Shown piece after piece: positions 5,539 through 51,752 of a stretch of DNA of 64,000 nucleotides (the first letter of the stretch is position 1; every line of letters begins with the position of its first letter). The position numbers and the translations under genes are program-made. The stretch is from a virus (taxonomy: Duplodnaviria; Caudoviricetes): IMG/VR virus record IMGVR_UViG_3300048881_000780; one strand, given 5' to 3'. Below the pieces are notes generated by a model. The model saw nothing but the letters and a program-made list of their open reading frames with translations, searched no databases and was not told where the DNA came from.

Positions 5539-5553
5539 TAACACTAAGTGTTA
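5539..5553. promoter_or_regulatory. Palindromic operator TAACRY-N3-RYGTTA upstream of clp
   Basis: TAACACTAAGTGTTA. Confidence 0.8.
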
Positions 5554-5688
5554 AGAAATGTATCGGCTAACACACCGTATTTATTTAGGCTTTTATACTT
5601 TTTTTAGGTCTTTTTAGTAGACGACGTAAATGAATAGTTACATTACGATATTCTTTTGAAGTGATTTACCAGCTCTTTATAAGGTAGT

Positions 5689-6165
5689 TTAATTAGAATG
5701 ATTTATTAAAGTTTGATCAAAATAATAAAAGGCCTTGTCCATATAATTTAAAGATCTAGATTCTTGTATTACTTTCTCTAAAACAGACCCTTTAAAGCAT
5801 TTGCAAAAGACAATTTTTCTTAATTGTTTAACATTAAATTTAGATATTATCGCCAAAGTGATGGTATGGATAATTTCCTTTTCATCTTCGCTAAGGAGAT
5901 TAAAGGAAGTTGGTATATAATTTGTTATTTTTTTTAATTCATACTGGTCGTATTCATCCCAAAAGATCTCACTAAAAATTATGTTATTTTGGTATACCTC
6001 TGGATGATTGTGTAAGCGAATTCTTTTTAATTCATTATTTTTAAAACTGACCATTTGTAGAACTATCAGAGCACCCATTAACTCAAAAGCATTAATATAG
6101 ATTTCATTTTCAATGAATATTTTCAATACTTCGTTTTTAATTTGTGCATCTTTTGTATTAATCAT
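5689..6165 (-). CDS. Hypothetical protein
   Basis: 158 aa ORF co-oriented with recA and the helicase. Confidence 0.7.
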   Translation of the reverse strand: MINTKDAQIKNEVLKIFIENEIYINAFELMGALIVLQMVSFKNNELKRIRLHNHPEVYQNNIIFSEIFWDEYDQYELKKITNYIPTSFNLLSEDEKEIIHTITLAIISKFNVKQLRKIVFCKCFKGSVLEKVIQESRSLNYMDKAFYYFDQTLINHSN

Positions 6166-6184
6166 ATACCCACATTAAACCTTA

Positions 6185-7924
6185 TTATCTCAGACCGCCG
6201 ATCTTCTGCCAGGCTTTTTCGACATAACTAACTGTCTTGTCTTTTTCATAGTATTCTTCAAATAACTTTTTTCTTAAATACGAGTGCTCTCTTAATTTGT
6301 CATGAAACCAATCATTCATATCGTGAACTTGAAACAAGAATCTCTTACAGAATTCATTTACTCTTAATCCACGACCAATTCTTTGAAGCATTCTTATAGG
6401 AGACTTTCTTGTATCAACTAGAAAAACATCTGTTATATTTTGCATGTCGGTACCCTCACCAATGGCCATCGTTCCAACAACAATTGCGGGTCTCTCTCCT
6501 TCACTAGCTGAGAGTTCTCGCTCTCTTCTCTCTTTTTTTGAAACTCCTCCATGTATCACATAATAATCAAAATCCGGAGAGTTCATCTCTTCTAATTTCT
6601 TTTCAAAGTAAAAACAATGGGCCTCTTCTGTCATAGCGAGAAAGATTCTTCGACCTTGGGCCATTAACTCGAAACACTTATCTAAGATAAAATCATTTCT
6701 GGCCTCATTGGCAATAATACCAACTGACATAATAACATTGAAGTCCTTTTCCTTATACTTAGAAAGTCTCTTACCGGATTCATCTCTTCTTAGATCTTGT
6801 AACCAGTAATTCTTTCCACCGACTATGCAACCAGGTGTTTCGTATTGCTTATAAATAGGCCTTTGAACAGTACCTCTTTTCATACTCTCTTGTGGTTTAA
6901 TTTCATAAATTAAACTCTTGCCGATCGCCGCACATAATAGTTCCATTTGGGCCTTAGACTCTTTAAATGGCGTCGCTGAAAGCGCAAATCTATAGTACGC
7001 ATTACTCATCTCTCTCGTGGCCTCTAAAATAGTGTCACATGAGGCCCAGTGGGCTTCATCAATGATTAAACAACCAACTGACTGTAAATAATCGTATGAA
7101 AGTCCCGGTAGAGATTGAAAACAAACAACACTTACAGCGGGATAGGAACTAGCATTCTTTTTTCCGCGAATTAATCCTTTGTCACTATCTTGGGTTTTTC
7201 TATATTTTCCAAATTCAAGAGTCATCCCCTTGGCCGCAAGAATTTGTTCAGATAGAGATTGGGAACTAAAATCCTCTTCTCTCTTATTGCTTTGATTTTT
7301 CTTATATTCAATAGCTTCCTTTAAAGTAACTCCCGATCCTTCAGACTTTGGAGGTGACTTAGAAACCATACTAGGTCCAAAATATTGGCATAGTTTTTTA
7401 TAAAGTCCATTTTGAACGGATGTATTAGGAACTACTATTAGAGTAGTTTTTGAGTATTTTTGAACTAATCTAGCGATGAGATAACTCTTTCCCTCACCAG
7501 TCATTGCGCAAAATAGACCCCTATGAATAATGAGATCTAACATTTCATCAATCTCATCGAGTTTTGCAAGAGCTTCCTCTTGCCACTCCCTTGGTTCTTC
7601 GAATTTTCCATCAGAAAAAGAATGCTTATCTAAGACATCTGCAAAATACTCATCAAAATCTGCTTCAATCTCTAATTCCTCACCTCTTTTGTCATAGATC
7701 TCAGAGAGTCTCTCATCCAATCTCGTTAGATATGGTGTTGGAAAACTTAAAAAGTTCTCCCCCTCTTTTCGCAGAAGATTCACTCTCTTTTTAATTTCTC
7801 TTCTACCATTTATATAGTTGTACTCTGTGATCACCAGGCAATCTTTAATAAGGGCCCTCTCTTCATTAGAGAGGGTCTTATTATCGATTAAACAAATATG
7901 AGGTTTAACAACTAGTGAGATCAA
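6185..7924 (-). CDS. SF2 DEAH helicase (UvsW/XPB-like)
   Basis: Q-motif PREWQ, TGEGKS, DEAH, SAT, QRIGRGLR. Confidence 0.9.
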   Translation of the reverse strand: MISLVVKPHICLIDNKTLSNEERALIKDCLVITEYNYINGRREIKKRVNLLRKEGENFLSFPTPYLTRLDERLSEIYDKRGEELEIEADFDEYFADVLDKHSFSDGKFEEPREWQEEALAKLDEIDEMLDLIIHRGLFCAMTGEGKSYLIARLVQKYSKTTLIVVPNTSVQNGLYKKLCQYFGPSMVSKSPPKSEGSGVTLKEAIEYKKNQSNKREEDFSSQSLSEQILAAKGMTLEFGKYRKTQDSDKGLIRGKKNASSYPAVSVVCFQSLPGLSYDYLQSVGCLIIDEAHWASCDTILEATREMSNAYYRFALSATPFKESKAQMELLCAAIGKSLIYEIKPQESMKRGTVQRPIYKQYETPGCIVGGKNYWLQDLRRDESGKRLSKYKEKDFNVIMSVGIIANEARNDFILDKCFELMAQGRRIFLAMTEEAHCFYFEKKLEEMNSPDFDYYVIHGGVSKKERRERELSASEGERPAIVVGTMAIGEGTDMQNITDVFLVDTRKSPIRMLQRIGRGLRVNEFCKRFLFQVHDMNDWFHDKLREHSYLRKKLFEEYYEKDKTVSYVEKAWQKIGGLR

Positions 7925-7933: not shown

Positions 7934-9214
7934 TTAAGCTGACTCAGGAAGATTATCTAAATCTTCAGCTGATAGATCTTCATCTTCGTCTTCAGTATTA
8001 GCATTAATACTAGAAATTCGAGTTCCGCTATCATACATTTTAATAGCTTCTTCTTTTAGACCAGCAAAATCAGTTCCGTTAACTAGATTTGCTCTGGTTT
8101 TACCATCTTCAATGGCTTTTCTTTTGATTTCTACTTTTTGAAGTTCAAAGTAAACAATACTCTTATAGTATAGCTCTTGAAATAATTCAGGAAGCTCTCT
8201 TAAAGAAGTTTCAAGCTGACCAACTCCGTGCCACTTGTGAAGAGTTCCGTTCTTATCTGTATATTGCCATCTCTTATTAGAAGTCTCTTCAATAACTCCA
8301 AGAGGTAAGAGAGCGTTGTGAATAATATCGTGAAAACGACAGAAACCAGCACCTAAGATAAGCTTCATAGTTACGGATCTTGCTAGACCCATTCTATTTT
8401 TTTCTGGAACAATTTCAGTATATCTTCCAATTGAATTTCCATTTTCATCTAAAATCTGTTTGTCCTTGGCCATACTCTTTTTAACTTTTGCTCTAACGGA
8501 AGTATAGAACTCAGTTGCGTTACCACCTGTTGATTTATCAGGAGCTCCATAGCCACCAATATTTGTTCTAGCTTGATTTACAACAATCATCGTGGCGCCA
8601 CTCTTGCCAAGTCTAGCGGTTAAGATTTGCCACATCTTAGAAATTAATCTTGCTTGAGATCCCATTTCATGATCTTCAGCACTACCATCTCTCATTTTCT
8701 TTGGAGTTAAGTTCTTCATACTATCAACGATAATAAAATCAATTGCTCCCGCATCTAGCGCCTGCGCAACTGTATCAATTCCCTCTTCACCATCAGCTGG
8801 TTGAAAAATTTGAAATAGACCCGATTCAACATCGATTCCAAGACTAGTTGCGTAGTCTTTATTAATAGCGTATTCCGTATCAACATAGAGAACAGTCTTT
8901 CCCTTTTTTACAAAAGAAGCAGAATAGATCATGCCAATAGTTGATTTAGATCCACCAGACGGACCCCAAAACTCTGAAATTCTACCAATAGGTAATCCAC
9001 CCGCTGCCATTAATCCATAATCAAGGCCAAGAAAACCAGAAGGCATCACTTCTTGCTCCTTTAATTTGGTAAAAGAAGACTCTAATTCTCCATTAAATTT
9101 AGAAGATTTTTCTAGTGACTTAAAGAAGTTAGCAAATAACTCTTTTTTGTTATTTTTAACTTCTTTAGTATCAGATTTTTTCTTTGTTTTTGCTTTAGTT
9201 TTTTTAATGGCCAT
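7934..9214 (-). CDS. recA: Divergent RecA/UvsX recombinase
   Basis: GGLPIGRISEFWGP, YVDTE, IVDS, MGSQARL, NQ.R, GGNA.EFY.SVR, KN motifs. Confidence 0.93.
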   Translation of the reverse strand: MAIKKTKAKTKKKSDTKEVKNNKKELFANFFKSLEKSSKFNGELESSFTKLKEQEVMPSGFLGLDYGLMAAGGLPIGRISEFWGPSGGSKSTIGMIYSASFVKKGKTVLYVDTEYAINKDYATSLGIDVESGLFQIFQPADGEEGIDTVAQALDAGAIDFIIVDSMKNLTPKKMRDGSAEDHEMGSQARLISKMWQILTARLGKSGATMIVVNQARTNIGGYGAPDKSTGGNATEFYTSVRAKVKKSMAKDKQILDENGNSIGRYTEIVPEKNRMGLARSVTMKLILGAGFCRFHDIIHNALLPLGVIEETSNKRWQYTDKNGTLHKWHGVGQLETSLRELPELFQELYYKSIVYFELQKVEIKRKAIEDGKTRANLVNGTDFAGLKEEAIKMYDSGTRISSINANTEDEDEDLSAEDLDNLPESA

Positions 9215-9236
9215 AGCGCCCTCCTTTTTTAAATAA

Positions 9237-9251
9237 TAACACCTAGTGTTA
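9237..9251. promoter_or_regulatory. Palindromic operator overlapping the recA -10
   Basis: TAACACCTAGTGTTA; on the minus strand GTTA runs into TATTAT. Confidence 0.8.
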
Positions 9252-9461
9252 ACTATTCCACTTTATTAATTTAGATTTCTTTAATCTAATTAAATTATCG
9301 CTTATTTTTCAGTGTCTTAAGAATGCTAAATTACCCATTTAACAGGTTAAAAAGGGTGAATATCTGCCAAAGAGAGTTTAGTCTGAGGGGAATTATTGAG
9401 AAAACAGATATTTAGCATAGAGAAGATCTATTCATAGTTAAATATCATTACTTGAGATTTT

Positions 9462-9476
9462 TGACAGGACATGTTA
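9462..9476. promoter_or_regulatory. Operator variant upstream of ORF 9499
   Basis: TGACAGGACATGTTA running into TAATAT. Confidence 0.55.
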
Positions 9477-9498
9477 ATATATCAAAAAGGAGTTTTAC

Positions 9499-9978
9499 AT
9501 GAAGTATATCATAGTCTTTTTATTAGTGCTTAATTCTTGGAGTTTTCCCACTCCTGACAAAGTTGAAGAAAAATTAATTTGTAAAAATGGAACTTGTAAA
9601 AAAGAAGTTGAATTCACTAAAAATCAGGCCAGCGTCTATGATGTTGACGATATAATTTATCAAACTGAGAAATATCCAAATTATATGTGCTTCTTTTCTC
9701 CTAATTCCAATAATGTATACTATCAAATTAGATATATTCACAAATATCAACAAACCTACCGAAAACCTGATTTATACTATGCTATAATTAAAGATAGAAA
9801 TACCATCATTCTAAAGAGAACTGATTATTACAAGAATGAGAAGTTTTCTGGATATTTTCTAGATTGCAAGGAAACTCCTTTTGCAAGATGGGAAAAGGAA
9901 ATTGAGAGAACTCTAAGAGGAACGAAGAAAACGACAGTTGGTAGATTTACAATTATTCACGATCGTAAATTTTATTAA
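9499..9978 (+). CDS. Secreted hypothetical protein
   Basis: N-terminal signal peptide, AGGAG SD. Confidence 0.75.
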   Translation: MKYIIVFLLVLNSWSFPTPDKVEEKLICKNGTCKKEVEFTKNQASVYDVDDIIYQTEKYPNYMCFFSPNSNNVYYQIRYIHKYQQTYRKPDLYYAIIKDRNTIILKRTDYYKNEKFSGYFLDCKETPFARWEKEIERTLRGTKKTTVGRFTIIHDRKFY

Positions 9979-9992: not shown

Positions 9993-10502
9993 ATGTGGAA
10001 CAAAACTAGAGAATTCAATGTTGAAGTATTAACAACAGAAGAACACGATAGAATAATGAAAGAACATAGAGAAGGTGCTGTTCGCTACCCTCTATTAGTT
10101 ATTAGAGAAAATATCTTTCGTCATATCAAGTCTCTTAATGATAACTACTCGAGAGATGAAGTTATAGGTCTATATCAAGATGTTTACAGAAAAGAAGACC
10201 TCTTTGATATGTGTATAAAGAAAGAGATTCCTTTTGATATTTTATTTTCAAAGCAATTTATTCACATGTTATTTCTAATCTCTAAAGATTGCGATATTTC
10301 TTATATCAAAGGTGTTGAGAAAGACTCTAAAGAGAGACTTATCCGTGGTGGAGAAGTAACTCTTTGGCGCCTTGATGAGGCCCGAGAAAAGATCAAGCAA
10401 TTCAAAGATGAAAATGAAAAGCACGATCTATTACAAAAAAGAAGAACTGCTGAAACTCCAATGAGAGACTTCATGCACGAAATCAAAAAGACTATTGCTT
10501 AA
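9993..10502 (+). CDS. Hypothetical protein
   Basis: 169 aa, SD present. Confidence 0.75.
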   Translation: MWNKTREFNVEVLTTEEHDRIMKEHREGAVRYPLLVIRENIFRHIKSLNDNYSRDEVIGLYQDVYRKEDLFDMCIKKEIPFDILFSKQFIHMLFLISKDCDISYIKGVEKDSKERLIRGGEVTLWRLDEAREKIKQFKDENEKHDLLQKRRTAETPMRDFMHEIKKTIA

Positions 10503-10632: not shown

Positions 10633-11001
10633 ATGAGTCACCTAACTAAAGAGTTTATTGAAAAACAAAGAAAGCTTCTACTTTCGCAAAAGAGCTCAAT
10701 ATTAAATCACATGAAGTTAAATGAAATAGAAGACCTCAGACCAGATCCGGACCAGATTGTAGAAGAGGTGGAAAAGGGACAGGTATATGCATCTCAGAGC
10801 TTAAGCATGAACTTGAGAGAGCGAGAGCTTAAGAATCTCCATGAAATAGAAGAGGCCCTCTATAGAATTGAGGTGGGTAGTTATGGTATATGTGAAGAAA
10901 CGGGAGAGGAAATAACTATTGCAAGACTTGAAAAGATTCCTTGGGTAAGACTATCTGTTGAGGCGCAAGAAGAAATAGAGAGATCTCAAATGGCCGCGTA
11001 A
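10633..11001 (+). CDS. dksA: DksA/TraR family transcription factor (single-Cys, probably Zn-free)
   Basis: RERE.K.L.EIEEAL.RI..GSYGICEETGEEI..ARLE.IPW.RLS signature. Confidence 0.9.
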   Translation: MSHLTKEFIEKQRKLLLSQKSSILNHMKLNEIEDLRPDPDQIVEEVEKGQVYASQSLSMNLRERELKNLHEIEEALYRIEVGSYGICEETGEEITIARLEKIPWVRLSVEAQEEIERSQMAA

Positions 11002-11917: not shown

Positions 11918-12877
11918 TTACTCTCTCACTAATCTTGAGTTTCTATATATTTTTGACAGCATCCCATCAATTTTATCTACAAAGTTATACACTGGCGGAG
12001 CATGAAATTTTTGTAATGAATAAGGTCTCTTTGATTTCATGTAACCACTATCTTTAATTGCTTTATTTAAAGTTTCTAGGGTTTCTTCTACCTCGTCAAC
12101 ACAAACTTTCTTATACCAAACTTTATTATCATTATACCATACAGGACGAATAGCTTCTTTCGCCACGTCTTTTACGTCATATTGTAATCCAACTAGAAAT
12201 AAGTATACCTTATCTTTTAGACCTCTCTCAATCATGACTTTTAAATAGTCTTTCATTGTAAGAAGAAGAGAAAGGGCTTTAACGTCATTTATGGCCTTAT
12301 GACCAATAAACTCAACCCCATGATATGTCATCAAACTTTCTTGCTTGTGATTAATGAACTCAGTCCACGGACCATCTTCGTAAGAACAGAGACAAGTTGG
12401 AACTTCATCTTTAGTGAATCCCATCTTTTTAAAACCCTGTTTATCAAAGGACATATTGTGAGCAATAATAAAATCAACATCCTTTAAAAAATCTTTCACT
12501 TCTTGATTATCTATTTTATGTCCGGCCACCATTTCATCATCAATACCCGTAAGCTCAGTAATAAATTCAGATATCGGCATACCTGGATCATTATATCGAT
12601 GAAGGGTTCCTAGTTGCCCTAAGAACTTAAAGTTCTCATCAAAACAAAGCTTTACCATAGCAAGCTCTATAATTTCATCAGTGGTTGATAATTTGGTACC
12701 AGTTGTCTCGAGATCAAAAGTCACTAGAACTTTAGACCCTTCAGGTGCCTTATCCAATTTAGGAAAAGTTAAATCAAATAGCTTTTCTAGATTCTCATCA
12801 TCTAATTTTGATACTTCAACCTTTGGGACTTCTAACCCTTTGATATCAATAAAATTTTCATTAAAAAACTTTTTCAT
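11918..12877 (-). CDS. DEDDh 3'-5' exonuclease (DnaQ/epsilon-like)
   Basis: ExoI FDLETTG, ExoII AHNMSFD, ExoIII HKAIND. Confidence 0.9.
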   Translation of the reverse strand: MKKFFNENFIDIKGLEVPKVEVSKLDDENLEKLFDLTFPKLDKAPEGSKVLVTFDLETTGTKLSTTDEIIELAMVKLCFDENFKFLGQLGTLHRYNDPGMPISEFITELTGIDDEMVAGHKIDNQEVKDFLKDVDFIIAHNMSFDKQGFKKMGFTKDEVPTCLCSYEDGPWTEFINHKQESLMTYHGVEFIGHKAINDVKALSLLLTMKDYLKVMIERGLKDKVYLFLVGLQYDVKDVAKEAIRPVWYNDNKVWYKKVCVDEVEETLETLNKAIKDSGYMKSKRPYSLQKFHAPPVYNFVDKIDGMLSKIYRNSRLVRE

Positions 12878-12933: not shown

Positions 12934-12948
12934 TAACATATTACGTTA
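12934..12948. promoter_or_regulatory. Palindromic operator upstream of the exonuclease
   Basis: TAACATATTACGTTA. Confidence 0.75.
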
Positions 12949-15363: not shown

Positions 15364-15399
15364 TAACGCTATATGTTATAATGTTAACAAGAAGTGTTA
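15364..15399. promoter_or_regulatory. Tandem operators in the divergent mutS/ATP-grasp promoter
   Basis: TAACGCTATATGTTA (15364-15378) and TAACAAGAAGTGTTA (15385-15399) flanking TATAAT. Confidence 0.8.
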
Positions 15400-15421: not shown

Positions 15422-16141
15422 ATGAAACAACTATGCCTTTTTGACAATAATAACAACCAAATGGATCCATTTGTTGAGAAGCTCGTTCAACTCCACAGTT
15501 TACAAGGTGGACAAATAAAAAAGATTTCTTATTTCAATAGTTTAAAAAAGGGAGACCTTCTGGTTCCATTCTCATTTAGTGATGAATGGAGAGAATTTAT
15601 GGAGTCAAATGAGGATCTATTAGAGTATACATTCTCTAAAGATGCAAACTTCATGTCTCGAGTAGAATTTACAAATTATCTAATAGAGAAAGATATCCCA
15701 ACACTTTGTCATCTTGATCATAAAACTTGCGAACTCCCATTTATCCTAAAGGGAATGTCTTCCAACAGAAAGAGTAAAACTACTGAAATCAAATCACTAA
15801 ATGACTATAGTTGTGCAGTGGAGCAATTTGATAGCTTTATAGTTCAAGAAAAGAAAAATATTGAAGAAAATTTAAGAGTTCTGATTGTAAACTCTGAACC
15901 TGTCCTCTTTTATGTTAAATCCAAAAGTAACCCAATAGAAAAAGGCGTTATCCCTGAGGATATAATGAAATATGTTACATACATTATTAAAGATCTCAAT
16001 TTATCCCTGGCAAATATCTGCATAGTTAAGAGCGCTGGAACATTATACGTAAACAAGATCAACTTTTTTCCATGCTTACATAATTCTTTAAAAATTAATG
16101 AAAATATTCATGAAGTTATATGGAGTCACTATTTGAAGTAG
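15422..16141 (+). CDS. RimK-like ATP-grasp fold protein (degenerate)
   Basis: PFILK, FIVQE, LRVLIV, L.LANICIV, VNKIN..P align with RimK motifs. Confidence 0.6.
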   Translation: MKQLCLFDNNNNQMDPFVEKLVQLHSLQGGQIKKISYFNSLKKGDLLVPFSFSDEWREFMESNEDLLEYTFSKDANFMSRVEFTNYLIEKDIPTLCHLDHKTCELPFILKGMSSNRKSKTTEIKSLNDYSCAVEQFDSFIVQEKKNIEENLRVLIVNSEPVLFYVKSKSNPIEKGVIPEDIMKYVTYIIKDLNLSLANICIVKSAGTLYVNKINFFPCLHNSLKINENIHEVIWSHYLK

Positions 16142-16188
16142 ATCATTTTACGATAATAGATATATAGACAAAAAAAGAGGAAAATTTT

Positions 16189-16530: not shown

Positions 16531-16545
16531 TAACGCTCTGTGTTA
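16531..16545. promoter_or_regulatory. Palindromic operator overlapping the -10 of ORF 16556
   Basis: TAACGCTCTGTGTTA running into TACTAT, 6 nt before ATG. Confidence 0.75.
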
Positions 16546-16555: not shown

Positions 16556-17026
16556 ATGAAAAGCACACACATAAAAATACTTACTGCCATCCTAATTACA
16601 TTTAACATCTCTGCATTCACTTGCAAGACAGAGAATCAAAAGAGAACGAATTACTGTAAATGCGTAACAAAAAAGACTAAATCTCTTGGTAAAGATGCAA
16701 TCTTTGAAAGAGAGAAGAGATTAGAATACAGTGAAATATGTTCCAAGAGGCACAATAGACTTCTTGAACATAACCAAGTTATGCGTAACTTATTTGATAG
16801 AGTTAATGAGGATTATAAAAATCAGCTAACTCAAAGATATGACACTATGTTAATGAGTGATGCCGAGTTCTTTTTACATTGTAATTACGTAAAAATTAAA
16901 GCTCTCTGTAGCGATTATAATACCCCATCGGGATTATTTAGATGCTACAAGAATGTCGAAATAGAAACTTATGATACCGTCTATAGGTCTTGTTTAAATC
17001 CTGTTCATAGACAAGTAAATATATAA
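16556..17026 (+). CDS. Secreted Cys-rich hypothetical protein
   Basis: Signal peptide, multiple Cys. Confidence 0.75.
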   Translation: MKSTHIKILTAILITFNISAFTCKTENQKRTNYCKCVTKKTKSLGKDAIFEREKRLEYSEICSKRHNRLLEHNQVMRNLFDRVNEDYKNQLTQRYDTMLMSDAEFFLHCNYVKIKALCSDYNTPSGLFRCYKNVEIETYDTVYRSCLNPVHRQVNI

Positions 17027-18005: not shown

Positions 18006-18221
18006 AACACACCTTCCTTAATATATTTCAAACTTTTATTAAAAGTCTTTTCAATTTAATTCTATTACTGATAAATCGGCTCTTCAAGAAAAATAGTATA
18101 ACGAATTTTGTTATATTTTAAATTTGCCTATTTTCAACCACTTATACACATACATTCTAGTTTTCTTGAGCGATTCTAAAGAAACCTTAAGAAAAATTTG
18201 CCAAATATTCTTGATACTAAG

Positions 18222-18245
18222 GTTCGATTCTCGCCACCTCCACCA
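18222..18245 (+). other. ssrA: 3-prime fragment of tmRNA (or Ala-type tRNA-like end); att-like core
   Basis: GTTCGATTCTCGCCACCTCCACCA = T-loop, 3' T-stem, acceptor strand with U70, A73 and CCA; 5' T-stem arm absent. Confidence 0.75.
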
Positions 18246-18298: not shown

Positions 18299-18313
18299 TA
18301 ACACTAAATGTCA
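18299..18313. promoter_or_regulatory. Operator variant upstream of ORF 17037-18005
   Basis: TAACACTAAATGTCA (1 mismatch). Confidence 0.6.
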
Positions 18314-20532: not shown

Positions 20533-20547
20533 TAACACGCATCGGTA
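20533..20547. promoter_or_regulatory. Operator variant overlapping an extended -10 upstream of the SGNH gene
   Basis: TAACACGCATCGGTA; minus strand continues TGTTATAAT. Confidence 0.5.
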
Positions 20548-23518: not shown

Positions 23519-23548
23519 TTGACACGCTACGTTAACCATGGTTATAAT
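23519..23548 (+). promoter_or_regulatory. Sigma70-type promoter containing an operator variant
   Basis: TTGACA-18 nt-TATAAT-6 nt-ATG; operator variant TGACACGCTACGTTA at 23520-23534. Confidence 0.7.
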
Positions 23549-32858: not shown

Positions 32859-32873
32859 TAACATAACACGTTA
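32859..32873. promoter_or_regulatory. Palindromic operator upstream of virB8-virB9-virB10-sigma
   Basis: TAACATAACACGTTA. Confidence 0.75.
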
Positions 32874-34064: not shown

Positions 34065-34079
34065 TAACACTTGGCGTTA
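34065..34079. promoter_or_regulatory. Palindromic operator upstream of the phosphoesterase
   Basis: TAACACTTGGCGTTA running into TAATAT. Confidence 0.8.
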
Positions 34080-43052: not shown

Positions 43053-43067
43053 TAACACCTTATGTTA
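43053..43067. promoter_or_regulatory. Palindromic operator overlapping the extended -10 of recD2
   Basis: TAACACCTTATGTTA running into TATAAT, 7 nt before ATG. Confidence 0.8.
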
Positions 43068-43078: not shown

Positions 43079-45244
43079 ATGAAAGTAACTGCGTCTTTAA
43101 AGAGAGTGATTTATCAAAATGAAAAGAATTGGGGTATCTATATCTTTTCTATAAAGGATTCCTTTAAAGATATCAAAGTAACTGGAGTTATCAATAAACC
43201 TGTAAAGGGTGTGAATTTCTCGCTAGATTTAGAATCAATATCAAATAATGAATATGGTGATCAATATAAGATAAACTCGATTATCTTAGAGACGGATTTA
43301 AATGACCCCGCGCAAATACTCGCGGTACTAAGCAGTGGCCTTATACCTGGAGTGAGAGAGAAGATGGCCCTAACTCTCCTTAAGGAGTTCAGGGAAGATA
43401 TTGGTGATATTATTAAAGACCACCCTATGGAGCTTACTAGAATTAAAGGTATTACTAAAAAGAAGGCCCTATTAATTCAAGAAGCTTGGATAAATATTGA
43501 AGTAAATAGTCACTACTTAAGTATTTTAATTGCTAAAGGATTCACTAAAAACAGGGCCCAATTTATTTGCGAAAATCACGATCAACCATTTATAGAGAGC
43601 GCTCTTTTAAATCCCTATGAATTCACAAAAGTTAAAGGAATTGGCTTTAGATTAATAGATGAGCTCGCCGTGGCAAACTTTAAAATAGAAAGAGATTGTA
43701 TCCATAGGATTCGATCTGGAATCAAGTGCGCTCTAAAGGAATCTCAAACTAATGGGAGTTTCTATATTAATGTCATAGATCTGACAAATAGAACCACTGA
43801 ATTATTTAAAGGTGACTTTAGCTTCGATGATATCTTTATAAAGATTAAACAAATGGCAAAAGAAGATAATCTCCTACATCACTGTAAAGTAGATGGAGAA
43901 GTATACTTGTGCTTTCCAAAAGATAGAGAATTGGAAATAAAATTAGCGCAAGAAATTGAGCGACTTAAAGAAGAGATTGAAATTGACTACTCAAAGGCCA
44001 ATGAGGCCATGGCCCAAGCAATTGATGACATTGGCTATCCATTAGATGAAATTCAAAAGATTGCCATATTAAAATCACTAGGAAATAGGATTTCAATCAT
44101 TACAGGTGGTCCTGGTAGAGGTAAAACCACCGTCGCTAGAACACTAATTGAAACACTGGAAAACCTCGAGGGAAATAAAGTTACTTATCTAAATGCCCTA
44201 TCAGCTAAGGCCGCAAAGAAAATCGGAGAATCCTGTCAAAGGGATTCCTCTACTCTACACTCACTACTTAGAATTGGTGGTGACGAAAGTGCAGAAATTA
44301 ACTTAGGTACAATTCATGGTGATCTTTTTATTATCGACGAGAGCTCTATGGTTGGTTCAAGTCTATTCTACACTTATCTAAGTGTTATTCCTTCTACTGC
44401 CCGAGTTGTAATACTAGGAGATCCCGATCAGCTACAAAGTATTGATTGTGGTAATGTTTTAAGAGATCTTATCTCTTCTGGAAAAATCCCTGTTACCACT
44501 CTTGAGAAAATTTATAGAGTTAAGAATGGGTCTGAAAATATCATTATTAGCTCTGATAAAGTTATCCAAGGTGAAATTCCAACGATTGAAGATTTTGACC
44601 AGTCAATTGTTTCACAAAGTGTAGGTTTCCTAAAAACAGATGATGTTAAAAATATTTGCGATATCTTTCTTAGTTACGAAAGAAGGAGAATAGATTCGCA
44701 GATATTATCTCCATACAAAAAAGGAGAGCTTGGTACAGAAAATATCAACAAAATAATTCAAGCTAGATACTTTTCTCACCTTGGTGATGATTGCTTTATG
44801 AGTAAAAAACATAAAGATAAGAGATTTTATATAGGTGATCGAGTTATTCAGACCCAAAACACTAGATATAGTGACATATATCTATGTAATGGTTCTATCG
44901 GTGTCGTTATTGATTACCTATATAAGAAAGATGGCACTATAAAAGGAATAATAGTTGAATTTGACGACATTATTGTTGAGATTATAAGTCCTACTCACAT
45001 AGAACTAGCGTACGCTACGACTGTTCATAAAGCACAGGGAAATGAGTACAGCTGTGTTTTAATGGCCGTATCAAAGGCCCATTACCACTTAATGAGTCGA
45101 GAACTCCTTTACACTGGAATGACTCGAGCAAAGGAGAAATTAATTCTCTTTGGAGATAAGAGAGCATTAAGTTTATACTGTATAAAAGAAAACCAAAAAA
45201 GAATCTCTTTTCTAAAAGAAGAGATCTTAAAGTTAGTATCTTAA
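43079..45244 (+). CDS. recD2: RecD2 SF1B helicase
   Basis: N-terminal OB/HhH regions, GGPGRGKT, DESSM, GDPDQL, AYATTVHKAQG, LLYTGMTRAK. Confidence 0.93.
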   Translation: MKVTASLKRVIYQNEKNWGIYIFSIKDSFKDIKVTGVINKPVKGVNFSLDLESISNNEYGDQYKINSIILETDLNDPAQILAVLSSGLIPGVREKMALTLLKEFREDIGDIIKDHPMELTRIKGITKKKALLIQEAWINIEVNSHYLSILIAKGFTKNRAQFICENHDQPFIESALLNPYEFTKVKGIGFRLIDELAVANFKIERDCIHRIRSGIKCALKESQTNGSFYINVIDLTNRTTELFKGDFSFDDIFIKIKQMAKEDNLLHHCKVDGEVYLCFPKDRELEIKLAQEIERLKEEIEIDYSKANEAMAQAIDDIGYPLDEIQKIAILKSLGNRISIITGGPGRGKTTVARTLIETLENLEGNKVTYLNALSAKAAKKIGESCQRDSSTLHSLLRIGGDESAEINLGTIHGDLFIIDESSMVGSSLFYTYLSVIPSTARVVILGDPDQLQSIDCGNVLRDLISSGKIPVTTLEKIYRVKNGSENIIISSDKVIQGEIPTIEDFDQSIVSQSVGFLKTDDVKNICDIFLSYERRRIDSQILSPYKKGELGTENINKIIQARYFSHLGDDCFMSKKHKDKRFYIGDRVIQTQNTRYSDIYLCNGSIGVVIDYLYKKDGTIKGIIVEFDDIIVEIISPTHIELAYATTVHKAQGNEYSCVLMAVSKAHYHLMSRELLYTGMTRAKEKLILFGDKRALSLYCIKENQKRISFLKEEILKLVS

Positions 45245-45246: not shown

Positions 45247-46314
45247 ATGGCATTATTTTTTAACCCCAATTTAACTATTGATGACAATATTGTAGAAGTA
45301 ATTCTAAAGAGCTCTAAATTTAATAAGAGTGAACTTCGTCACATAAGATCACTGGTTGCCAATATTGTATTAAATACCAATTGTTATATTCCACTTAATA
45401 ATAGATTTTGGCCCAAGTTGAGCGAGAGGTATAACCCTCAAAAGTTAAATTACAATGGTCTTCTTAAGGCCGTTGAAACTCTTGAGGCCAAGAAGATTAT
45501 TTCTAAGTCTTGGGCGCCTGGCATGAGAGCAACTAAGCTTGATACCCTTTGTGATCTAGATCTCTATAAGGCTGGAGTTAAATTTTGCTACAATAGAGAA
45601 CTCATTGTTCTTAGAAGTGAATTTAGAGAACCCCTTCCCTATGAAGATACTAATAGATTATCAATGCAAAGAAGAGCTCTTAAGAAGATTAATGATCTAA
45701 ATGCTTCATTTGACATTGAACTTGGTAACTCTAAACTAGAAACCGATTTAACCAGATTATACAAAATTGACTTCAACTCGGGGGGAAGATTCTTTGCTCC
45801 CTATCAATTTATTGAAAAAGATAAGAGAAAGTACATAACTATTAACAAAGAAAAGACTGTCGAAATTGATTACCAGTCTATGCATATCTACTTGGCATTT
45901 CATCTTCTAGGACAAGTCGCTCCGGTTGGGGATTTTTATAATCACCCATTTATCCAAAGAGACATTGTAAAGTTAGCAACACTTATCTCCTTAAATGCTA
46001 AGAGCTTTAAAGAGGCCATATTCGCGCTCTCTAAGAAAACAGGACTAAGTGACTTAGATAGTGAAAATATTCTAAGATCAATTACAGCTAATTCTCCCTA
46101 CTTTAATGAAATATTCTATTCAGGGATTGCCCTTAAGTTACAAAAACTAGAAAGTGATACTATCTTTGATATTATGAAATATGCTACAAAGAAGAAGCTT
46201 CCTCACTTAGTGGTTCACGACTCATTTATAGTTAGAGAAAAAGAGCAAGAAATCGTTCGCGCCATGATGATTGATATTCCTAAGAAATTAAATGATTTAA
46301 ATCTCTACTTGTAA
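45247..46314 (+). CDS. Stand-alone family-A nucleotide polymerase-like (palm) protein
   Basis: GGRF....Q, motif A EIDY, LQ..ES, motif C VHDS; 2 nt after the recD2 stop. Confidence 0.7.
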   Translation: MALFFNPNLTIDDNIVEVILKSSKFNKSELRHIRSLVANIVLNTNCYIPLNNRFWPKLSERYNPQKLNYNGLLKAVETLEAKKIISKSWAPGMRATKLDTLCDLDLYKAGVKFCYNRELIVLRSEFREPLPYEDTNRLSMQRRALKKINDLNASFDIELGNSKLETDLTRLYKIDFNSGGRFFAPYQFIEKDKRKYITINKEKTVEIDYQSMHIYLAFHLLGQVAPVGDFYNHPFIQRDIVKLATLISLNAKSFKEAIFALSKKTGLSDLDSENILRSITANSPYFNEIFYSGIALKLQKLESDTIFDIMKYATKKKLPHLVVHDSFIVREKEQEIVRAMMIDIPKKLNDLNLYL

Positions 46315-46376
46315 GACATTGAATATTGGTAATTCATGTAATTATTCTATGTCAATGATCACCTAGTGACATTAGT

Positions 46377-46889
46377 TTGTTACATCTAAGTAAATTAATT
46401 ACGATAAATATTATAATGAAACTAGGTTTCAAAATATTAGAATTGGTAATTATGAATTTTACGATTAATAAGAACACATTTATTCTAGAAAAATGCAAGA
46501 AGACTGTAGTCGAAGGACAACTAGTTCCAGACTACCCAAGAAAGCTTGTTATTTTAAAAATACTACAGGCCATAATCTTAAGACCAGGTAAACTAACTGG
46601 AAACGAAGTATTCTTTATTAGAAAAGAATTTGGACTATCTAAGGTAAAGCTTGGACAAATGTTTGGAACAAGTCACACTGCCGTAGCTAAGTGGGAAGCC
46701 AGTAAGAATCAGGCAAGTTGTATGGATTTATTAAAAGATAAAGAGTTAAGACTCTCTATTTTTAAATATATTGCTAAAGAGGTTAAATTATCACAAAGAC
46801 AAATTGAAAGTGAGTTTTTTAACCTATATCAAAATATTCCAAAGATTCAAAAAAAGAAGAGCTCACCTATTAAAGTCATTATGGAGTAG
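46377..46889 (+). CDS. XRE HTH protein (MqsA/HigA-like); true start probably downstream
   Basis: LTGNEVFFIRKEFGLSKVKLGQMFGTSHTAVAKWE. Confidence 0.8.
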   Translation: MLHLSKLITINIIMKLGFKILELVIMNFTINKNTFILEKCKKTVVEGQLVPDYPRKLVILKILQAIILRPGKLTGNEVFFIRKEFGLSKVKLGQMFGTSHTAVAKWEASKNQASCMDLLKDKELRLSIFKYIAKEVKLSQRQIESEFFNLYQNIPKIQKKKSSPIKVIME

Positions 46890-47087: not shown

Positions 47088-47876
47088 CTAAGCAACTTTT
47101 AAAAAGTTATAGTTTCCAAATTCATTTTCAAAGTAATCATCTAGATCGTCTCCGACCATCTCAAATATCCATCTATTTTCTTTAACGATAGGAATATAGT
47201 TTTTCTCATCTTGAACTTCTAGCGTACAAACACTAGTAAAGATTGACATGAATTTTGAGTCAACTAATAGTTTTCTCCAGTTTTCACAGTGATGACTAAA
47301 TAGAATATTCTTCTTTGGTGCCTGAGTGCCATCTTTTCCGTAAACTTGAGTCCCCATAAAGGCACACATTGCATGTAAGAAGTTTCCACGATACGAGGCA
47401 CCTCTTTTTAAATGATCCCAAACACTCTTTCTAAAACTTAAATGATCCTCGATCTCAACAGTCGCATAGCGTTTTGACTCAAGAAAAATTCTATACTCAT
47501 CAAAACATCTCACCATAAACTGATAAGACTCTTCGTCTTCATGGATTACACTATCGTAGAAGTATGTTAGAGATAGTTGATCAAGACTAGTGAAGTTAAC
47601 TTTTTCAAACTCACACTCTAAAAAGAAGCTCAATGAAACAGAGGCCTTTTCAAAGCTAATATTCTTAAATGAACAATTTATAAAAATACAATTTTCAATA
47701 TATAATTCTTTGTAATCGACATTATCAAAAGAGCAGTTTACATAGATCTTACTTTTTATTTTTTCATTTTTAAACTTCTTCTTCTTTAACTTTAAATCAA
47801 GAAATTCCTTTCTCCTTCCTTTTGGTAGAATTTTCTTTTCCTTCAGTAGATCCAACCACTTCTTCTTTAATTCCAT
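47088..47876 (-). CDS. Pentapeptide-repeat protein
   Basis: NCSFDNVDY..ENCIFINCSFKNISFEKA..FLECEFEKVNF. Confidence 0.8.
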   Translation of the reverse strand: MELKKKWLDLLKEKKILPKGRRKEFLDLKLKKKKFKNEKIKSKIYVNCSFDNVDYKELYIENCIFINCSFKNISFEKASVSLSFFLECEFEKVNFTSLDQLSLTYFYDSVIHEDEESYQFMVRCFDEYRIFLESKRYATVEIEDHLSFRKSVWDHLKRGASYRGNFLHAMCAFMGTQVYGKDGTQAPKKNILFSHHCENWRKLLVDSKFMSIFTSVCTLEVQDEKNYIPIVKENRWIFEMVGDDLDDYFENEFGNYNFLKVA

Positions 47877-47934: not shown

Positions 47935-47949
47935 TAACACTTTGCGGTA
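47935..47949. promoter_or_regulatory. Operator variant upstream of the pentapeptide gene
   Basis: TAACACTTTGCGGTA; minus strand runs into TAAGAT. Confidence 0.6.
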
Positions 47950-48244: not shown

Positions 48245-50533
48245 TTACTGAAATTCTTCAGTTACGAGTGATTTAAAATTAGAGATATCAATCTCTGTGG
48301 TGCCATCAATAATATCCATGCCCATATCTCCAGCATAGTTTTCAATACTCCACTGACCAGAAGTTACAACGGCTTCAATCTGAGCGTTAGCATCAGTTTT
48401 TTGATACTTGTATTCATTTAATTCTCTATTGGCCAAGTAGAATTCTCGACCAATGACAGGTTTGCCATTTTCATAAATTGTAAGTTTAATAATTTTTGAC
48501 TCTATCGTCTCTATATCTAGATAGTGACCAGAGTTTCTATAGTTATATATAGTTTGCTGAGAGTTTTTAATAGTATCATTTAAGCTCGTTAAATTAAGTC
48601 TTGAGATGTCATATGACTTTAGACCACCAATATAGCTAGTATTTAGTGAATCCAGATCTCCCTTATTGGAAGTAACTCCCTTTTTAGAAGTCAGAGCAAA
48701 TGGTTTATCTACTTCTCTATTAACTATGGCCATGGCCCCTGGAACAAAGAATAGAGAAGTCGAGGCCTTTAGTGAAACACTTTGATTTAAGCTCTCACTA
48801 TCCATTCTAGGGATTCTGACACTATATCCTTTGGAGAGGTAGAATAAATCGTTATTGTGGCTTAAAACTGAATTTAGACTCGATCCATTCTCATCATTAT
48901 TTGAAGTGACACTAAGGCTATTTTTATCGTGGGAAAAATTAAAATCATAATTAATTGAAAAGCTTTGGGCCTTTTGATCATTATATGAATAATTTAAACT
49001 TAAACCATTGTAGTGATAAGAACTATATAGTCGATATCGATAATTTCTATCAAATTTATCAAATTCTAAATCATACTCTCCTCCCACTTTAAAATCACTT
49101 AAGTTTAAAGAGAGATCTGTATTTATACTATCATTGAACCAACCACCAAAATCCTTAGATGCTCTATAACCATAACTTAGAGCAAAAGGCCCCCATCTCT
49201 TAGAGATATTAAAAGACATTGATAAATTATCAAAATCAGAACTAGAGTACTCCTTATCTTGATATTGAGTTTGCAATGTAAAGTTATGCCCAAATAAACT
49301 AAGAGGAATATTAGACTGATAGGACGAACCAAAGTCTTCACCTCTTTTTCTATAATTAGAATTAAGCTTTAAATTACCAAACCTAGAAGCGTATATATAG
49401 TTTTGACCTACTTCATAATTTCCTAATTCACTAAAAAAGACAGAACTTTCAAGAGTTAGATTCTTTGTTACCCCATATGCCGCGGCCACAAAGTACTCAT
49501 CAATATTTGGCAATTCTGAGTAGAATTCACTTTGATCTGATCTCTTTCCAGTTGCAGAAATATCCCAATAGAACTTACCTGGTGAAATTAAATCAGAAGA
49601 GCCCATCACTTGGTACTCAATAATCCTCTTTTTCTTGTCCTCATCAGTAATGACTATTTTTACATCGTTAAATTCATTGTAAAACGGCAACCCCTCTAGA
49701 GTGTGAACTCCCTTATCTAAGTGAAGTGAGCTAACATTTTTAGAGTTAACAATAATATCAACTTTAGATCTTTTCTTTAGAATGATTTTTCTTGAGTATT
49801 CATTTCTTATATCAATATCTTTAAGGCCACTACCTCGATTACCAATTCTTATACCACTTCCTGAGTGGGACTGATTTCCATAATTAAGAGAGCTGATATT
49901 TAAAAAGTTAAAGTATAGATTATGCTCTGGGAAATCTAGATATCCCCTGGGCTCATCAATCATCCACTTATCTCTTGATGATTTCTTAGTCACTTCAGAA
50001 TCAAGCCATATTCTCCATAATTGCAGGCCACCATCTAAATTAATTCCAGTGGTGCTCTTTCTCTCTTTTGTTAAGCCCATATTGTGGTCTAAATTAACTC
50101 TAAATTGTCCCGAAAATATACTAGGCCTTAATGCCTCAACTTCCCAAGGACGCTGTTCACCTTCTTTTAAATTACTCTTAGTTCCCTTATAGAATTTTGA
50201 TGGTAAATCTAACTTAATAGTCATGGTTTCCATCTCGTAATCAAATTTATAAGAAGAGATGTCACTTTTAGACAGCTTTTGAAATAGTTTATCTCTAAAT
50301 TCTTTTTTTATTTTATTTTTAGAAAAATGAGAGTTCTTTAATCCACTTAGGTCAATACTAACGAGAGTTTCTCCATCAGCATATGCCTCAACCTCTCCCA
50401 CATAGCTTCCCCCAATATACATAGTGCCAAGGACTAAGTCCTTGGCACTGGAGTTTGTGCTATATAAAAACACAAGGAGAAACACATGCAGAGAATAAAG
50501 GAGGCACCCTCTGTGTAATTTTTTATCAAACAA
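48245..50533 (-). CDS. Fimbrial outer-membrane usher
   Basis: Signal peptide, beta-barrel alternation, plug-like LDKGVHTLEGLP....NDVKIVITD, DLISPG...W, YGVTKNLTL. Confidence 0.85.
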   Translation of the reverse strand: MFDKKLHRGCLLYSLHVFLLVFLYSTNSSAKDLVLGTMYIGGSYVGEVEAYADGETLVSIDLSGLKNSHFSKNKIKKEFRDKLFQKLSKSDISSYKFDYEMETMTIKLDLPSKFYKGTKSNLKEGEQRPWEVEALRPSIFSGQFRVNLDHNMGLTKERKSTTGINLDGGLQLWRIWLDSEVTKKSSRDKWMIDEPRGYLDFPEHNLYFNFLNISSLNYGNQSHSGSGIRIGNRGSGLKDIDIRNEYSRKIILKKRSKVDIIVNSKNVSSLHLDKGVHTLEGLPFYNEFNDVKIVITDEDKKKRIIEYQVMGSSDLISPGKFYWDISATGKRSDQSEFYSELPNIDEYFVAAAYGVTKNLTLESSVFFSELGNYEVGQNYIYASRFGNLKLNSNYRKRGEDFGSSYQSNIPLSLFGHNFTLQTQYQDKEYSSSDFDNLSMSFNISKRWGPFALSYGYRASKDFGGWFNDSINTDLSLNLSDFKVGGEYDLEFDKFDRNYRYRLYSSYHYNGLSLNYSYNDQKAQSFSINYDFNFSHDKNSLSVTSNNDENGSSLNSVLSHNNDLFYLSKGYSVRIPRMDSESLNQSVSLKASTSLFFVPGAMAIVNREVDKPFALTSKKGVTSNKGDLDSLNTSYIGGLKSYDISRLNLTSLNDTIKNSQQTIYNYRNSGHYLDIETIESKIIKLTIYENGKPVIGREFYLANRELNEYKYQKTDANAQIEAVVTSGQWSIENYAGDMGMDIIDGTTEIDISNFKSLVTEEFQ

Positions 50534-50537
50534 TTCA

Positions 50538-51521
50538 CTATTCCTTAATCGAAACCTTTAAATCCTTTTGACAGCTTTTAAGATCCGATTTGCTAAGTGC
50601 CATATGAAAGTCCATTTCACTTTTGGCCAGAACATTAGTGATTGCATTGGTCTTCTTTACGAAGCTTGATTTAACAACTTTTCCATTACATTTTAATTTT
50701 AGAGTTTTAAACATTACATTCTTTGAACCAACATTTTTTACTCTAACTACCACTCTGTCCTTCTTAACTGTCTTATTAGCTATTTTAAGGTTTCCAGCAG
50801 TAGTCTTAGATCCATTAACATAGATATTTCCAACATATCTAAGTCTTTGAATTATCTGAGTTCTTGTTCCCTTTGCCTTCTTATCTCTCTTAGGCATTTC
50901 AGGGACTTGTGTGAAAATAACTCTATAACTCTTTTGTTTTGAGAAATTATGATCACCAGTGTAGAGAACTTTTACTACCGCACTACCTGGTTTTCCGTCC
51001 TTCGCTGGTGGAATAAACACTGGTGAGCGATAAATTTTAAATTCTTTTGCTAAAGGTCTTGCTCTTGTTTTAACCATCTCTCTTAGTGGTAAGACAGTGT
51101 CTCTTAACTCTTTTTGAGTCAAAATAGTTTTGGCCTTCTTGCCTTTTCCACTCTTTTGAAAGAGAATTCTCTCAATGGCCATAAATTCATTTGCTTCAAG
51201 AATATGAGTCTTTTCTAGTTTATTTAATAATTTAGATAGGACTTCTTTATTCTTTTTAGAAATAAGCTTATGATTTTCTAGTTTTCTTAATTTTCTAAGA
51301 GTACTTTCAACATTTAAAAATACTTCCTTTTCAGTTCCATCTAACAGTTGAATTCTGTGAGCAGTATCAACAACTACCTCCATCTTCTTATTGGATCCAT
51401 TTTGTAACTTAAAAATAGCTACCTTTTGACCATTTTCCAGCGTTGCCGAAGTTGGGGATAACGAAAACCCGTAACTAAGAGTAGATAGGGTGAACATTAA
51501 TAACATTAAACATTTTTTCAT
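50538..51521 (-). CDS. Fimbrial periplasmic chaperone with a basic insertion of about 95 aa
   Basis: FSLSPT...F.L.N, R....DG.E, SYRVIFTQVP, RY.G.IYV, VKNVG.K. Confidence 0.8.
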   Translation of the reverse strand: MKKCLMLLMFTLSTLSYGFSLSPTSATLENGQKVAIFKLQNGSNKKMEVVVDTAHRIQLLDGTEKEVFLNVESTLRKLRKLENHKLISKKNKEVLSKLLNKLEKTHILEANEFMAIERILFQKSGKGKKAKTILTQKELRDTVLPLREMVKTRARPLAKEFKIYRSPVFIPPAKDGKPGSAVVKVLYTGDHNFSKQKSYRVIFTQVPEMPKRDKKAKGTRTQIIQRLRYVGNIYVNGSKTTAGNLKIANKTVKKDRVVVRVKNVGSKNVMFKTLKLKCNGKVVKSSFVKKTNAITNVLAKSEMDFHMALSKSDLKSCQKDLKVSIKE

Positions 51522-51752
51522 TTTTTTCTCCTTTAATTAGTAACTACATTTTAAGGCACAAAGGAGTGGTAAGAATTAATTTTTAACATATTGCGTTTAA
51601 ATATAAATATTCAACAAGATAAGATAGGAACCACCATGGGGTATTCTCTATGATTACGAATACTTAAAAAGAAAACACTTCCATTCCTAGATCTTTTAAA
51701 GAAGGGGGCCTTAAGGCGTAAATTTGGACTTTAATTTATTTAAAATGAACAC

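Follow-up and report, generated by a model that had tools for sequence, protein, structure and literature searches.

Phage P1, an element of ~94 kb, has a repressor, C1, whose targets include replication and recombination functions and the activator of the late promoters. The λ operator OR2 begins TAACAC, and the boxes recognized by LexA proteins include CTGT-N8-ACAG, GAAC-N4-GTTC, GTTC-N7-GTTC, TTAC-N3-GTAA and others. The P1 C1 operators number 22, are dispersed, and are asymmetric 17-mers of the type ATTGCTCTAATAAATTT (PMC8546580). In plasmid RK2, the small helix-turn-helix (HTH) dimer KorA binds operators that overlap the -10 element of several operons (PMC11790492). The C protein of Mollicutes (HsdC) belongs to the Xre type of HTH proteins and recognizes a GTGTTA core lying over a TRTG-extended -10, the TG of which is critical for binding; its sites are mostly direct repeats, (GTGTTA-N5)x2, at one or few promoters of a restriction-modification (R-M) operon, although an inverted TAACAC...ATGTTATAAT site has been predicted in M. 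mobile (PMC5282649). Here we describe a palindrome, TAACRY-N3-RYGTTA, that recurs along a 64,000-nt stretch of viral DNA (Duplodnaviria; Caudoviricetes; IMG/VR record IMGVR_UViG_3300048881_000780), referred to below as the window, and along the larger mobile element from which the stretch derives. The palindrome is a real, non-random cis-regulatory element located on predicted promoters. We consider it, with a probability of roughly 0.6, to be the operator of one dimeric repressor, which is most likely encoded by the element itself.

A preliminary description of the window had listed eight perfect matches to the palindrome and estimated well below one by chance. All eight are found where it placed them (Table 1), and dinucleotide-shuffled sequences contain on average 0.01 perfect sites, with none of 100 shuffles reaching eight. 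When one mismatch is allowed, the window holds 14 sites against 1.7 expected; 13 of the 14 lie outside open reading frames (ORFs), in the 8.8% of the window that is non-ORF DNA, which bears out the claim of an intergenic location. The near matches that had been listed are equally real, five of them (15385, 18299, 23520, 47935 and 51584) having one mismatch and two (9462 and 20533) having two, but the list was incomplete, as it omitted an intergenic site with two mismatches at 18099 and a site with one mismatch at 60585, within the 3' part of a gene.

Proteins of the window are encoded on a Logan contig of 145 kb (SRR35531919), and a contig of 361 kb is recorded in the protein collection as well. 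Joining overlapping Logan pieces, whose overlaps were verified to be identical, yielded element DNA in window coordinates -2066 to 127719; the extended counts given below cover positions 1-127719 (127.7 kb), of which 9.1% is intergenic by the assembly's gene calls. This sequence contains 16 perfect and 19 one-mismatch sites, compared with 0.07 and 3.5 expected in Markov-random sequence, and 28 of these 35 sites are intergenic (binomial P = 2.5e-23), a distribution quite different from random scatter in coding DNA. A G is tolerated at position 2, and the correspondingly wider form TRACRY-N3-RYGTYA has 23 perfect copies.

The arrangement of the two arms is strict. Sixteen perfect sites have the N3 spacing, compared with 0-1 at each other spacing from N0 to N12, and neither direct nor everted arrangements of the same arms are enriched in the 127.7 kb. 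The site thus combines two-fold symmetry with a fixed half-site spacing of about one helical turn, as do the operators of dimeric HTH proteins; a two-fold symmetric pair of arms whose centres lie ~9 bp apart is typical of a dimer that reads successive major grooves. The flanks are also symmetric, with an A at -3 and a T at +19 in ~69% of the sites. The arms vary independently of each other, and a would-be hairpin contains A·C or C·A mispairs at 12934, 15364, 32859, 34065 and 43053. Since base pairing between the arms is not maintained, the palindrome does not have the properties of an RNA structure, and a hairpin in the leader was rejected on the basis of the missing compensatory changes and of an Rfam search of the window that returned no match. 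Symmetry, strict spacing and the lack of RNA-type compensation together point to a dimeric DNA-binding protein.

The position of the sites relative to promoter elements was then compared between the two arms, with the 28 intergenic sites of the extended sequence oriented towards the nearer start codon. According to the preliminary description, the GTTA half-site runs into the -10 hexamer in most cases. Taken literally, as an exact TGTTATAAT, this applies in the window at 15364, 43053 and 20533, but the overlap stands in a broader form: the proximal arm supplies TG in 23 of the 28 sites, compared with 15 for the distal arm (Fisher one-sided P = 0.02), and TAnnnT in 18, compared with 14. Site positions 11-12 (YG) and 14-15 (TA) correspond to the TG and the first two -10 bases of an extended -10 element (TGnTAnnnT), and the oriented k-mers that are most strongly enriched in front of genes are GTTATAAT, TGTTATAA and GTGTTAT. 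The first 100 kb of the extended sequence contain seven copies of TGTTATAAT, all of them on or beside a palindrome: six are in register, two of these with degenerate left arms, and the seventh stands beside a separate site at 72275. TGnTATAAT with any other n occurs only within genes in the same 100 kb.

The predicted extended -10 elements, which are of the sigma-70 type, lie at suitable distances from start codons. At 16556, 43079, 80073 and 80972 the -10 ends 6, 7, 7 and 7 nt before the start codon, and at ten further genes this distance is 13-21 nt, which by sequence is just enough for a Shine-Dalgarno leader. The four genes with the shorter distance are predicted to be leaderless, because a transcription start 7 nt past the -10 would coincide with the A of the ATG. 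All four start codons match the assembly's independent gene calls, and that of the RecD2-like gene also agrees with a Pfam alignment beginning at residue 2. None of the four is preceded by a Shine-Dalgarno sequence. In an element of low GC content, with strong AGGAG sites at its other genes, this is unusual. A generic -35/-10 scan gave no excess over shuffled sequences, and no consistent -35 was seen when the sites were inspected by eye. At some promoters the site has a different position: it lies between a -35 (TTGAC-type arm) and a separate -10 at 23520, at 72275 and in a small-RNA promoter at 114.4 kb, and over the predicted start site at 32859. At the level of sequence, the sites therefore overlap the core promoter at the extended -10, at the -35 or spacer, or at the start site, which is the geometry of a repressor.

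This geometry is also relevant to readings in which the palindrome is itself a promoter. No dedicated protein would be needed if it consisted of two extended -10 elements placed back to back, forming a bidirectional promoter, or if it were an N4-type promoter that forms a hairpin or cruciform in the DNA. Both flanks do often read TAnnnT, and several sites are located in divergent regions (15364, 23520, 34065 and 90112). Two independent promoters, however, would have no reason to keep an exact 3-bp spacer, and many sites lie between co-directional genes (12934, 32859 and 47935), where the second promoter would be antisense, while the divergent region 9215-9498 has two separate sites. The arms are often non-complementary, which leaves a stem of 4 bp, and the N4-type hairpin promoter was rejected because of these mispaired arms. 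We regard an origin of the palindrome in promoter or hairpin sequence as very unlikely. Two further promoter models were tried and discarded. A promoter of the AAC/CGT type read by an extracytoplasmic function (ECF) sigma factor would have a spacer of 16-17 nt, not 6 nt, and the left arm cannot serve as the -35 for a downstream -10 at most sites, which have no -10 at 17 nt.

Alternatively, the palindrome could be a positive element, bound by an element-encoded activator or a factor that redirects RNA polymerase, and would then mark a class of early or middle promoters. The distance to the start codons is indeed very regular, at 6-7 or 13-21 nt in 14 of the 28 sites, and no -35 is present. A sigma-like protein is among the products of the element, and TACGATAA marks a second class of boxed promoters. 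Against this, the site is two-fold symmetric, centred near -18 and placed over the -10 region, a position that known activators do not occupy: class I and class II activators bind at -61 and -41, MotA binds at -30, and factors of the MerR type depend on a -35 and a 19-bp spacer. Sigma factors, for their part, read asymmetric elements. The register is also not fixed, some sites being placed in the spacer or over the start site; a promoter element would hold one register, whereas a repressor need only overlap the footprint of RNA polymerase. We prefer repression to activation because the register varies and the symmetric site centres near -18, and we consider an activator site improbable.

A role outside transcription, with the palindrome as a partition or centromere site or as a site of replication or recombination scattered over the element, was considered as well. 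Palindromes of the ParB/KorB type are also dispersed on plasmids (PMC11790492), but the sites described here go together with -10 features and stand at short distances from start codons that recur from gene to gene, and they occur singly or in pairs, not in clustered arrays. We give this explanation almost no credence.

In the mechanism that we propose, the operator T(A/G)AC(A/G)(C/T)-N3-(A/G)(C/T)GT(C/T)A would be bound by one two-fold symmetric, sequence-specific repressor. The promoters of the element would be of the sigma-70 type, with an extended -10 and no recognisable -35, and at most sites the gene-proximal arm (R-T-G-T-T-A) would provide both the TG and the two bases with which the -10 hexamer begins. 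A dimer spanning approximately -25 to -11 would then exclude RNA polymerase. The same effect is predicted for the minority of promoters at which the site covers the start site or the -35 and spacer.

The preliminary description attributed the regulation to one repressor encoded by the element, and proposed looking for an HTH gene with the motif upstream of itself. This check returned a plausible candidate, albeit one located outside the window. P0046 is a 198-residue orphan protein encoded at 90526-91122 (-) in window coordinates, with a weak HTH signal (HTH_31, E = 0.03, below the Pfam threshold), and its gene is preceded by a perfect operator at 91170, with TGnTATTAT 43 nt before the start. 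When given a two-sequence alignment, AlphaFold2 predicts four short N-terminal helices with a predicted local distance difference test (pLDDT) value of 65-76, a disordered linker, and a confident C-terminal domain (residues 100-198, pLDDT 78-88). The top Foldseek rows, which are weak, are HTH proteins of the HigA/Xre/HipB type; a sequence-profile search of the PDB returned HTH matches at E ~0.7 only, and no match to KorA. Homodimer predictions for P0046 gave ipSAE values of 0.00, 0.58 and 0.64 (median 0.58), compared with 0.00 for the best control; they were run with a self-made two-row alignment, with a run agreement of at least 0% and a partner pLDDT of at least 64. Among proteins of solved structure, 20 of 30 homomers and 1 of 23 monomers attained this ipSAE mark. 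The predicted interface is symmetric and involves residues 104-197, and the modelling supports dimerisation of P0046.

HTH genes are few in the 128 kb: besides P0046 there are toxin-antitoxin (TA) antitoxins together with AbiEi, a 170-residue protein at 46377 and a 123-residue HTH_3 protein at 97056. The HTH_3 gene has a palindrome of its own upstream, TTACAC-N9-GTGTAA (extended coordinates 96990-97050), and so does the 170-residue protein gene (TCACCTAGTGA, window 46355-46372); these private palindromes are probably autoregulatory operators. As regulators of the element-wide palindrome, both proteins and the TA antitoxins were rejected, since they have different palindromes of their own or no site. 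The assignment of P0046 as the protein that binds the operator is tentative, and we would put it somewhat below even odds.

Relatives of the element are scarce. A Megablast search with 25 kb against plasmid and phage collections returned no match, and attempts to find related loci through the RecA-like and 861-aa proteins among viral, genome and metagenome contigs led to ordinary RecA genes or to nothing. The nearest homologues of the RecA-like and ClpA-like proteins are cellular, with 35-42% identity. To judge from these searches, the element is close to being an orphan. A single relative, P0047, did emerge when 1.84 billion cluster representatives were searched exhaustively with P0046 by HMMER. 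It is encoded on a 4.5-kb contig (L011) and shares 24.5% (BLAST) or 29% (HMMER) identity with P0046. In both copies a ClpA-like AAA+ gene lies directly upstream of the P0046-type gene (extended 90526-93448; L011 775-3984), with 33% identity between the AAA+ proteins, and a small ORF of 103 or 104 aa, for which BLAST gave no match, follows just downstream on the opposite strand. P0047 has a duplicated N-terminal HTH-like module.

The architecture of the site is retained in L011 with a shifted half-site (TGACGA-N3-RTGTCA), which is present in both promoter-bearing spacers. The P0046 homologue is preceded by TTGACGA-tgt-GTGTCAA. The following promoter region has TTGACGA-ttt-ATGTCAA, whose left arm also serves as a -35, 18 nt ahead of TGnTAGAAT. 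By a rough estimate, finding TGAC-N7-GTCA twice in ~250 nt of L011 spacer is far beyond chance, and the palindromic element is therefore conserved at ~25-33% protein identity. This footprinting rested on one 4.5-kb relative; a look-up of the L011 AAA+ protein gave no longer contig. A scan of IMG/VR for TTAACAC-N3-GTGTTAA returned at least 118 stretches, nearly all with one site and a few phage contigs with two or three; among the matches listed, none is homologous to the element. On two of the phage contigs (L126, 2032-2189, and L128, 1685-1841), two TAACAY-N3-RTGTTA sites lie between divergent genes that appear by eye to be CI-like and Cro-like. These contigs offer a natural case of the same 15-mer being used as a classical immunity operator.

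Such occurrences bear on a further reading, in which a global regulator of the host, for example a stress or SOS repressor, would have been recruited to time the replication and repair genes of the element. The use of the same 15-mer as paired operators in unrelated phage contigs (L126/L128, L085 and L024) means that the element is not alone in having this specificity. With recA-, mutS-, ruvC-, ssb- and exonuclease-like genes among them, the targets resemble the SOS gene set, and no strong regulator gene was found in the window. Yet AAC-N9-GTT with a 3-bp spacer is unlike the LexA boxes that we know of, and the shifted half-site of L011 (TGACGA), found next to a P0046-type protein that has diverged as well, fits the co-evolution of an element-encoded pair better. 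The SOS-like programme that had been put forward for these genes is not supported. There is no LexA/S24-type gene in the Pfam records for the 128 kb, Peptidase_S24 being absent both from the precomputed matches across ~128 kb and from our own Pfam scans; to our knowledge the motif matches no LexA box; and a full-text literature search on the half-site arms returned no LexA paper with this site. By its testable features this does not appear to be a LexA system, and we judge control by a host regulator to be unlikely. Zygotic induction, which had been suggested as the other possible programme, is speculative as well.

Several observations weigh against a single element-encoded repressor, or against P0046 in this role. 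All promoter positions are sequence predictions, and part of the overlap with the -10 could reflect the protein's own preference for flanking bases, or weak divergent promoters, because the flanks are symmetric and TAnnnT is also present on the distal side of 14 of the 28 sites. The AlphaFold2 monomer of P0046 predicted without an alignment is poor (pLDDT 45), a Foldseek comparison with the PDB gave no match at E 0.001, and one of the three dimer runs scored 0.00. The site upstream of the P0046 gene is weak evidence, as about half of the promoters carry one. Furthermore, HTH genes were surveyed in 128 kb, and the remaining ~230 kb of the element may hold better candidates.

Within the 128 kb examined, the regulon would on present predictions take in about half of all transcription units (Table 1). 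The gene labels of the preliminary description fared unevenly. Those of clp, recA, helicase, exonuclease, mutS and recD2 are backed by Pfam, whereas "ATP-grasp" and "polymerase" are without support. The "virB8-9-10" label can be traced to one sub-threshold TrbI match on a 782-residue protein (22 bits against a cut-off of 35) and to an Atlas lead of 0.89; PHROGs and NCBIfam gave no match in the putative type IV secretion system (T4SS) operon, and a T4SS core as a target of the operator, with that one match as its evidence, is not borne out. The "sigma" label, given to a 300-residue protein (27913-28815, minus strand), agrees with Atlas features at 0.95, but Pfam and NCBIfam returned no match to it. 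Its top Atlas cluster is viral, with Sigma70_r2 in 73% of the members, and the language-model clusters closest to it consist of sigma-70 r2/r4 proteins from viruses and bacteria. Lying within an operator-headed operon, this protein is a possible second tier of a cascade; the earlier proposal that it drives class II surface genes is not supported. What had been called a phosphoesterase is the 861-residue product of 34127-36712 (+), which matches phrog_1745 "DNA transfer protein" (1.3e-60).

The targets are rich in recombination and repair genes, as had been claimed, and one operon encodes the sigma-like protein. In the extension, sites are found ahead of DUF2227, RuvC-like, guanylate-kinase, SSB, SLT-operon, SprT-like and RNase H genes. 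Other genes lack the site, among them those of a Big_9/cadherin adhesin, of a subtilase and of the toxin-antitoxin modules, and a second AAA+ gene. The DNA transfer protein, together with T4_Y16D, RuvC, RecJ and SSB genes nearby in the extension, gives the element a strong phage flavour. A second promoter-proximal box, TACGATAA, occurs at 16149, 16474, 46400 and, in extended coordinates, 66720, ~16-40 nt before start codons, and it may be the target of the element's sigma-like factor. The copy at 46400 suggests that the HTH-like ORF annotated at 46377-46889 has its true start at an ATG near 46417.

Table 1. Sites of the palindrome in the 64,000-nt window, with the promoter features predicted for their arms and the genes beside them.
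Position	Match	Promoter feature	Neighbouring genes
5539..5553	perfect (TAACAC-taa-GTGTTA)	minus proximal arm TGnTAATAT	66 nt before ClpB/ClpA-like AAA+ gene 2679-5468(-)
9237..9251	perfect	minus arm TGnTATTAT	18 nt before ATG of RecA-like gene 7934-9214(-), operon head, with superfamily 2 (SF2) helicase 6185-7924 and ORF 5689-6165
9462..9476	2 mismatches (TGACAG...ATGTTA)	plus arm TGnTAATAT	18 nt before ORF 9499-9978(+); 3' of it ORF 9993-10502 and DksA/TraR-type zinc-finger gene 10633-11001
12934..12948	perfect		upstream of RNase_T/DnaQ-like exonuclease 11918-12877(-), gap 52 nt
15364..15378	perfect	75-bp divergent region; plus arm TGTTATAAT, minus arm CGnTATGAA	plus arm towards 15422-16141; minus arm 13 nt before MutS-like gene 12953-15346(-)
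15385..15399	1 mismatch	second site in divergent region, 21 bp from 15364 site	18 nt before ORF 15422(+)
16531..16545	perfect	TGnTACTAT ends 6 nt before ATG	ORF 16556-17026(+), predicted leaderless
18099..18113	2 mismatches	plus arm TGnTATATT	plus arm faces non-coding stretch ending in tRNA-like 3' end; minus arm faces ORF 17037-18005(-)
18299..18313	1 mismatch	minus-strand distal arm TTGACA (-35-like); AATATT or TATTTT 16-18 nt downstream	
20533..20547	2 mismatches	minus arm GTGTTATAAT	upstream of GDSL-lipase-like gene 18387-20447(-)
23520..23534	1 mismatch	divergent; just upstream of TGGTTATAAT (spacer register)	before HNH-like gene 23555-24277(+); 42 nt from operon 21920-23473(-)
32859..32873	perfect	minus strand; begins 2 nt after consensus GGTTATAAT	heads operon 32838->24936(-), including weak TrbI-like gene 28823-31171 and sigma-like gene 27913-28815
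34065..34079	perfect	plus arm CGnTAATAT	43 nt before 861-aa gene 34127-36712(+); ORF 33706-33975(-) divergent
43053..43067	perfect	TGTTATAAT ends 7 nt before ATG	RecD2-like helicase 43079-45244(+), predicted leaderless; operon continues with 45247-46314 and 46377-46889
47935..47949	1 mismatch	minus arm TGnTAAGAT	upstream of pentapeptide-repeat gene 47088-47876(-)
51584..51598	1 mismatch		upstream of operon 50538-51521 / 48245-50533(-)
60585..60599	1 mismatch		in 3' part of gene 60490-63798(-), 215 nt upstream of ORF 59006-60370(-)

The site at 60585 may be an internal promoter or operator, or a chance match. In the non-coding stretch faced by the site at 18099, the sequence GGTTCGATTCTCGCCACCTCCACCA at 18221-18245 (+) resembles the T-arm and acceptor 3' end, with CCA, of a tRNA or transfer-messenger RNA (tmRNA). 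ARAGORN called no tRNA in the window, and a 5' acceptor strand matching 18221-18245 was not seen. This sequence could be a tRNA fragment of the att type, or the end of a small RNA driven from the operator and promoter at 18099.

One operator on about half of the promoters would provide a map of transcription units, and likely of the early or maintenance gene set, for an element that brings its own genes for replication, recombination and repair and has hardly any relatives in public data. The predicted leaderless promoters lacking a -35 also hint at the host's style of transcription. A bolder version of the model would make the orphan HTH family of P0046 and P0047 the master repressor of a 361-kb phage/plasmid hybrid, acting on ~60-80 promoters, many of them leaderless and one of them driving the sigma-like factor, and released through removal that depends on a ClpA-like unfoldase. 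We think this version doubtful at best; if true, it would amount to an 'immunity' circuit with two tiers and a proteolytic gate, of which no example has been described in giant mobile elements.

When the palindrome is compared with described systems, LexA regulons share the placement of a palindromic operator upstream of recA-, ruvC-, ssb-, mutS- and exonuclease-type genes, but the targets here also include many non-repair genes. As in λ and 434, where CI and Cro act, the operators are pseudo-palindromic, of a form bound by HTH dimers, and overlap promoter hexamers; unlike those of λ, they are found on dozens of promoters, beyond one immunity region, and their spacer is 3 bp instead of 5 bp, with neither an S24 nor a CI C-terminal domain seen here. 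The Mollicutes C proteins have in common with our case a GTGTTA core placed over an extended -10. The repeats described here are, in contrast, inverted with an N3 spacer, the regulon is element-wide, and there is no linkage to R-M genes: the sites precede repair, replication and unknown genes, and not a C gene or R-M operon.

By analogy, the closest systems in function and scale are the P1 C1 and RK2 KorA regulons. Both this element and P1 would have many operators dispersed over a large extrachromosomal molecule, at comparable density (~0.22 per kb in the 127.7 kb), and a single repressor would account for the 35 sites as C1 does for its own; the late-promoter activator among the C1 targets finds a parallel in the sigma-like gene. 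The site differs from the C1 operator in being a strict two-fold palindrome and not an asymmetric 17-mer, and no C1 homologue was detected. The likeness to KorA lies in a plasmid-wide regulon with overlap of the -10 at several operons, and in the outline of P0046, an N-terminal HTH signal followed by a predicted C-terminal dimerisation domain. Homology of P0046 to KorA or TrbA was not found by Pfam, where the sub-threshold HTH_31 match is its sole hit, or by the PDB profile search. The operator sequence also differs from those of KorA and KorB, the sites are far more numerous here, and neither a second operator of the OB type nor a ParB partner was identified. The palindrome would thus extend the C1 and KorA paradigm to a much larger element without introducing a new principle: the control circuit is of a kind familiar from mobile elements, and the motif is new.

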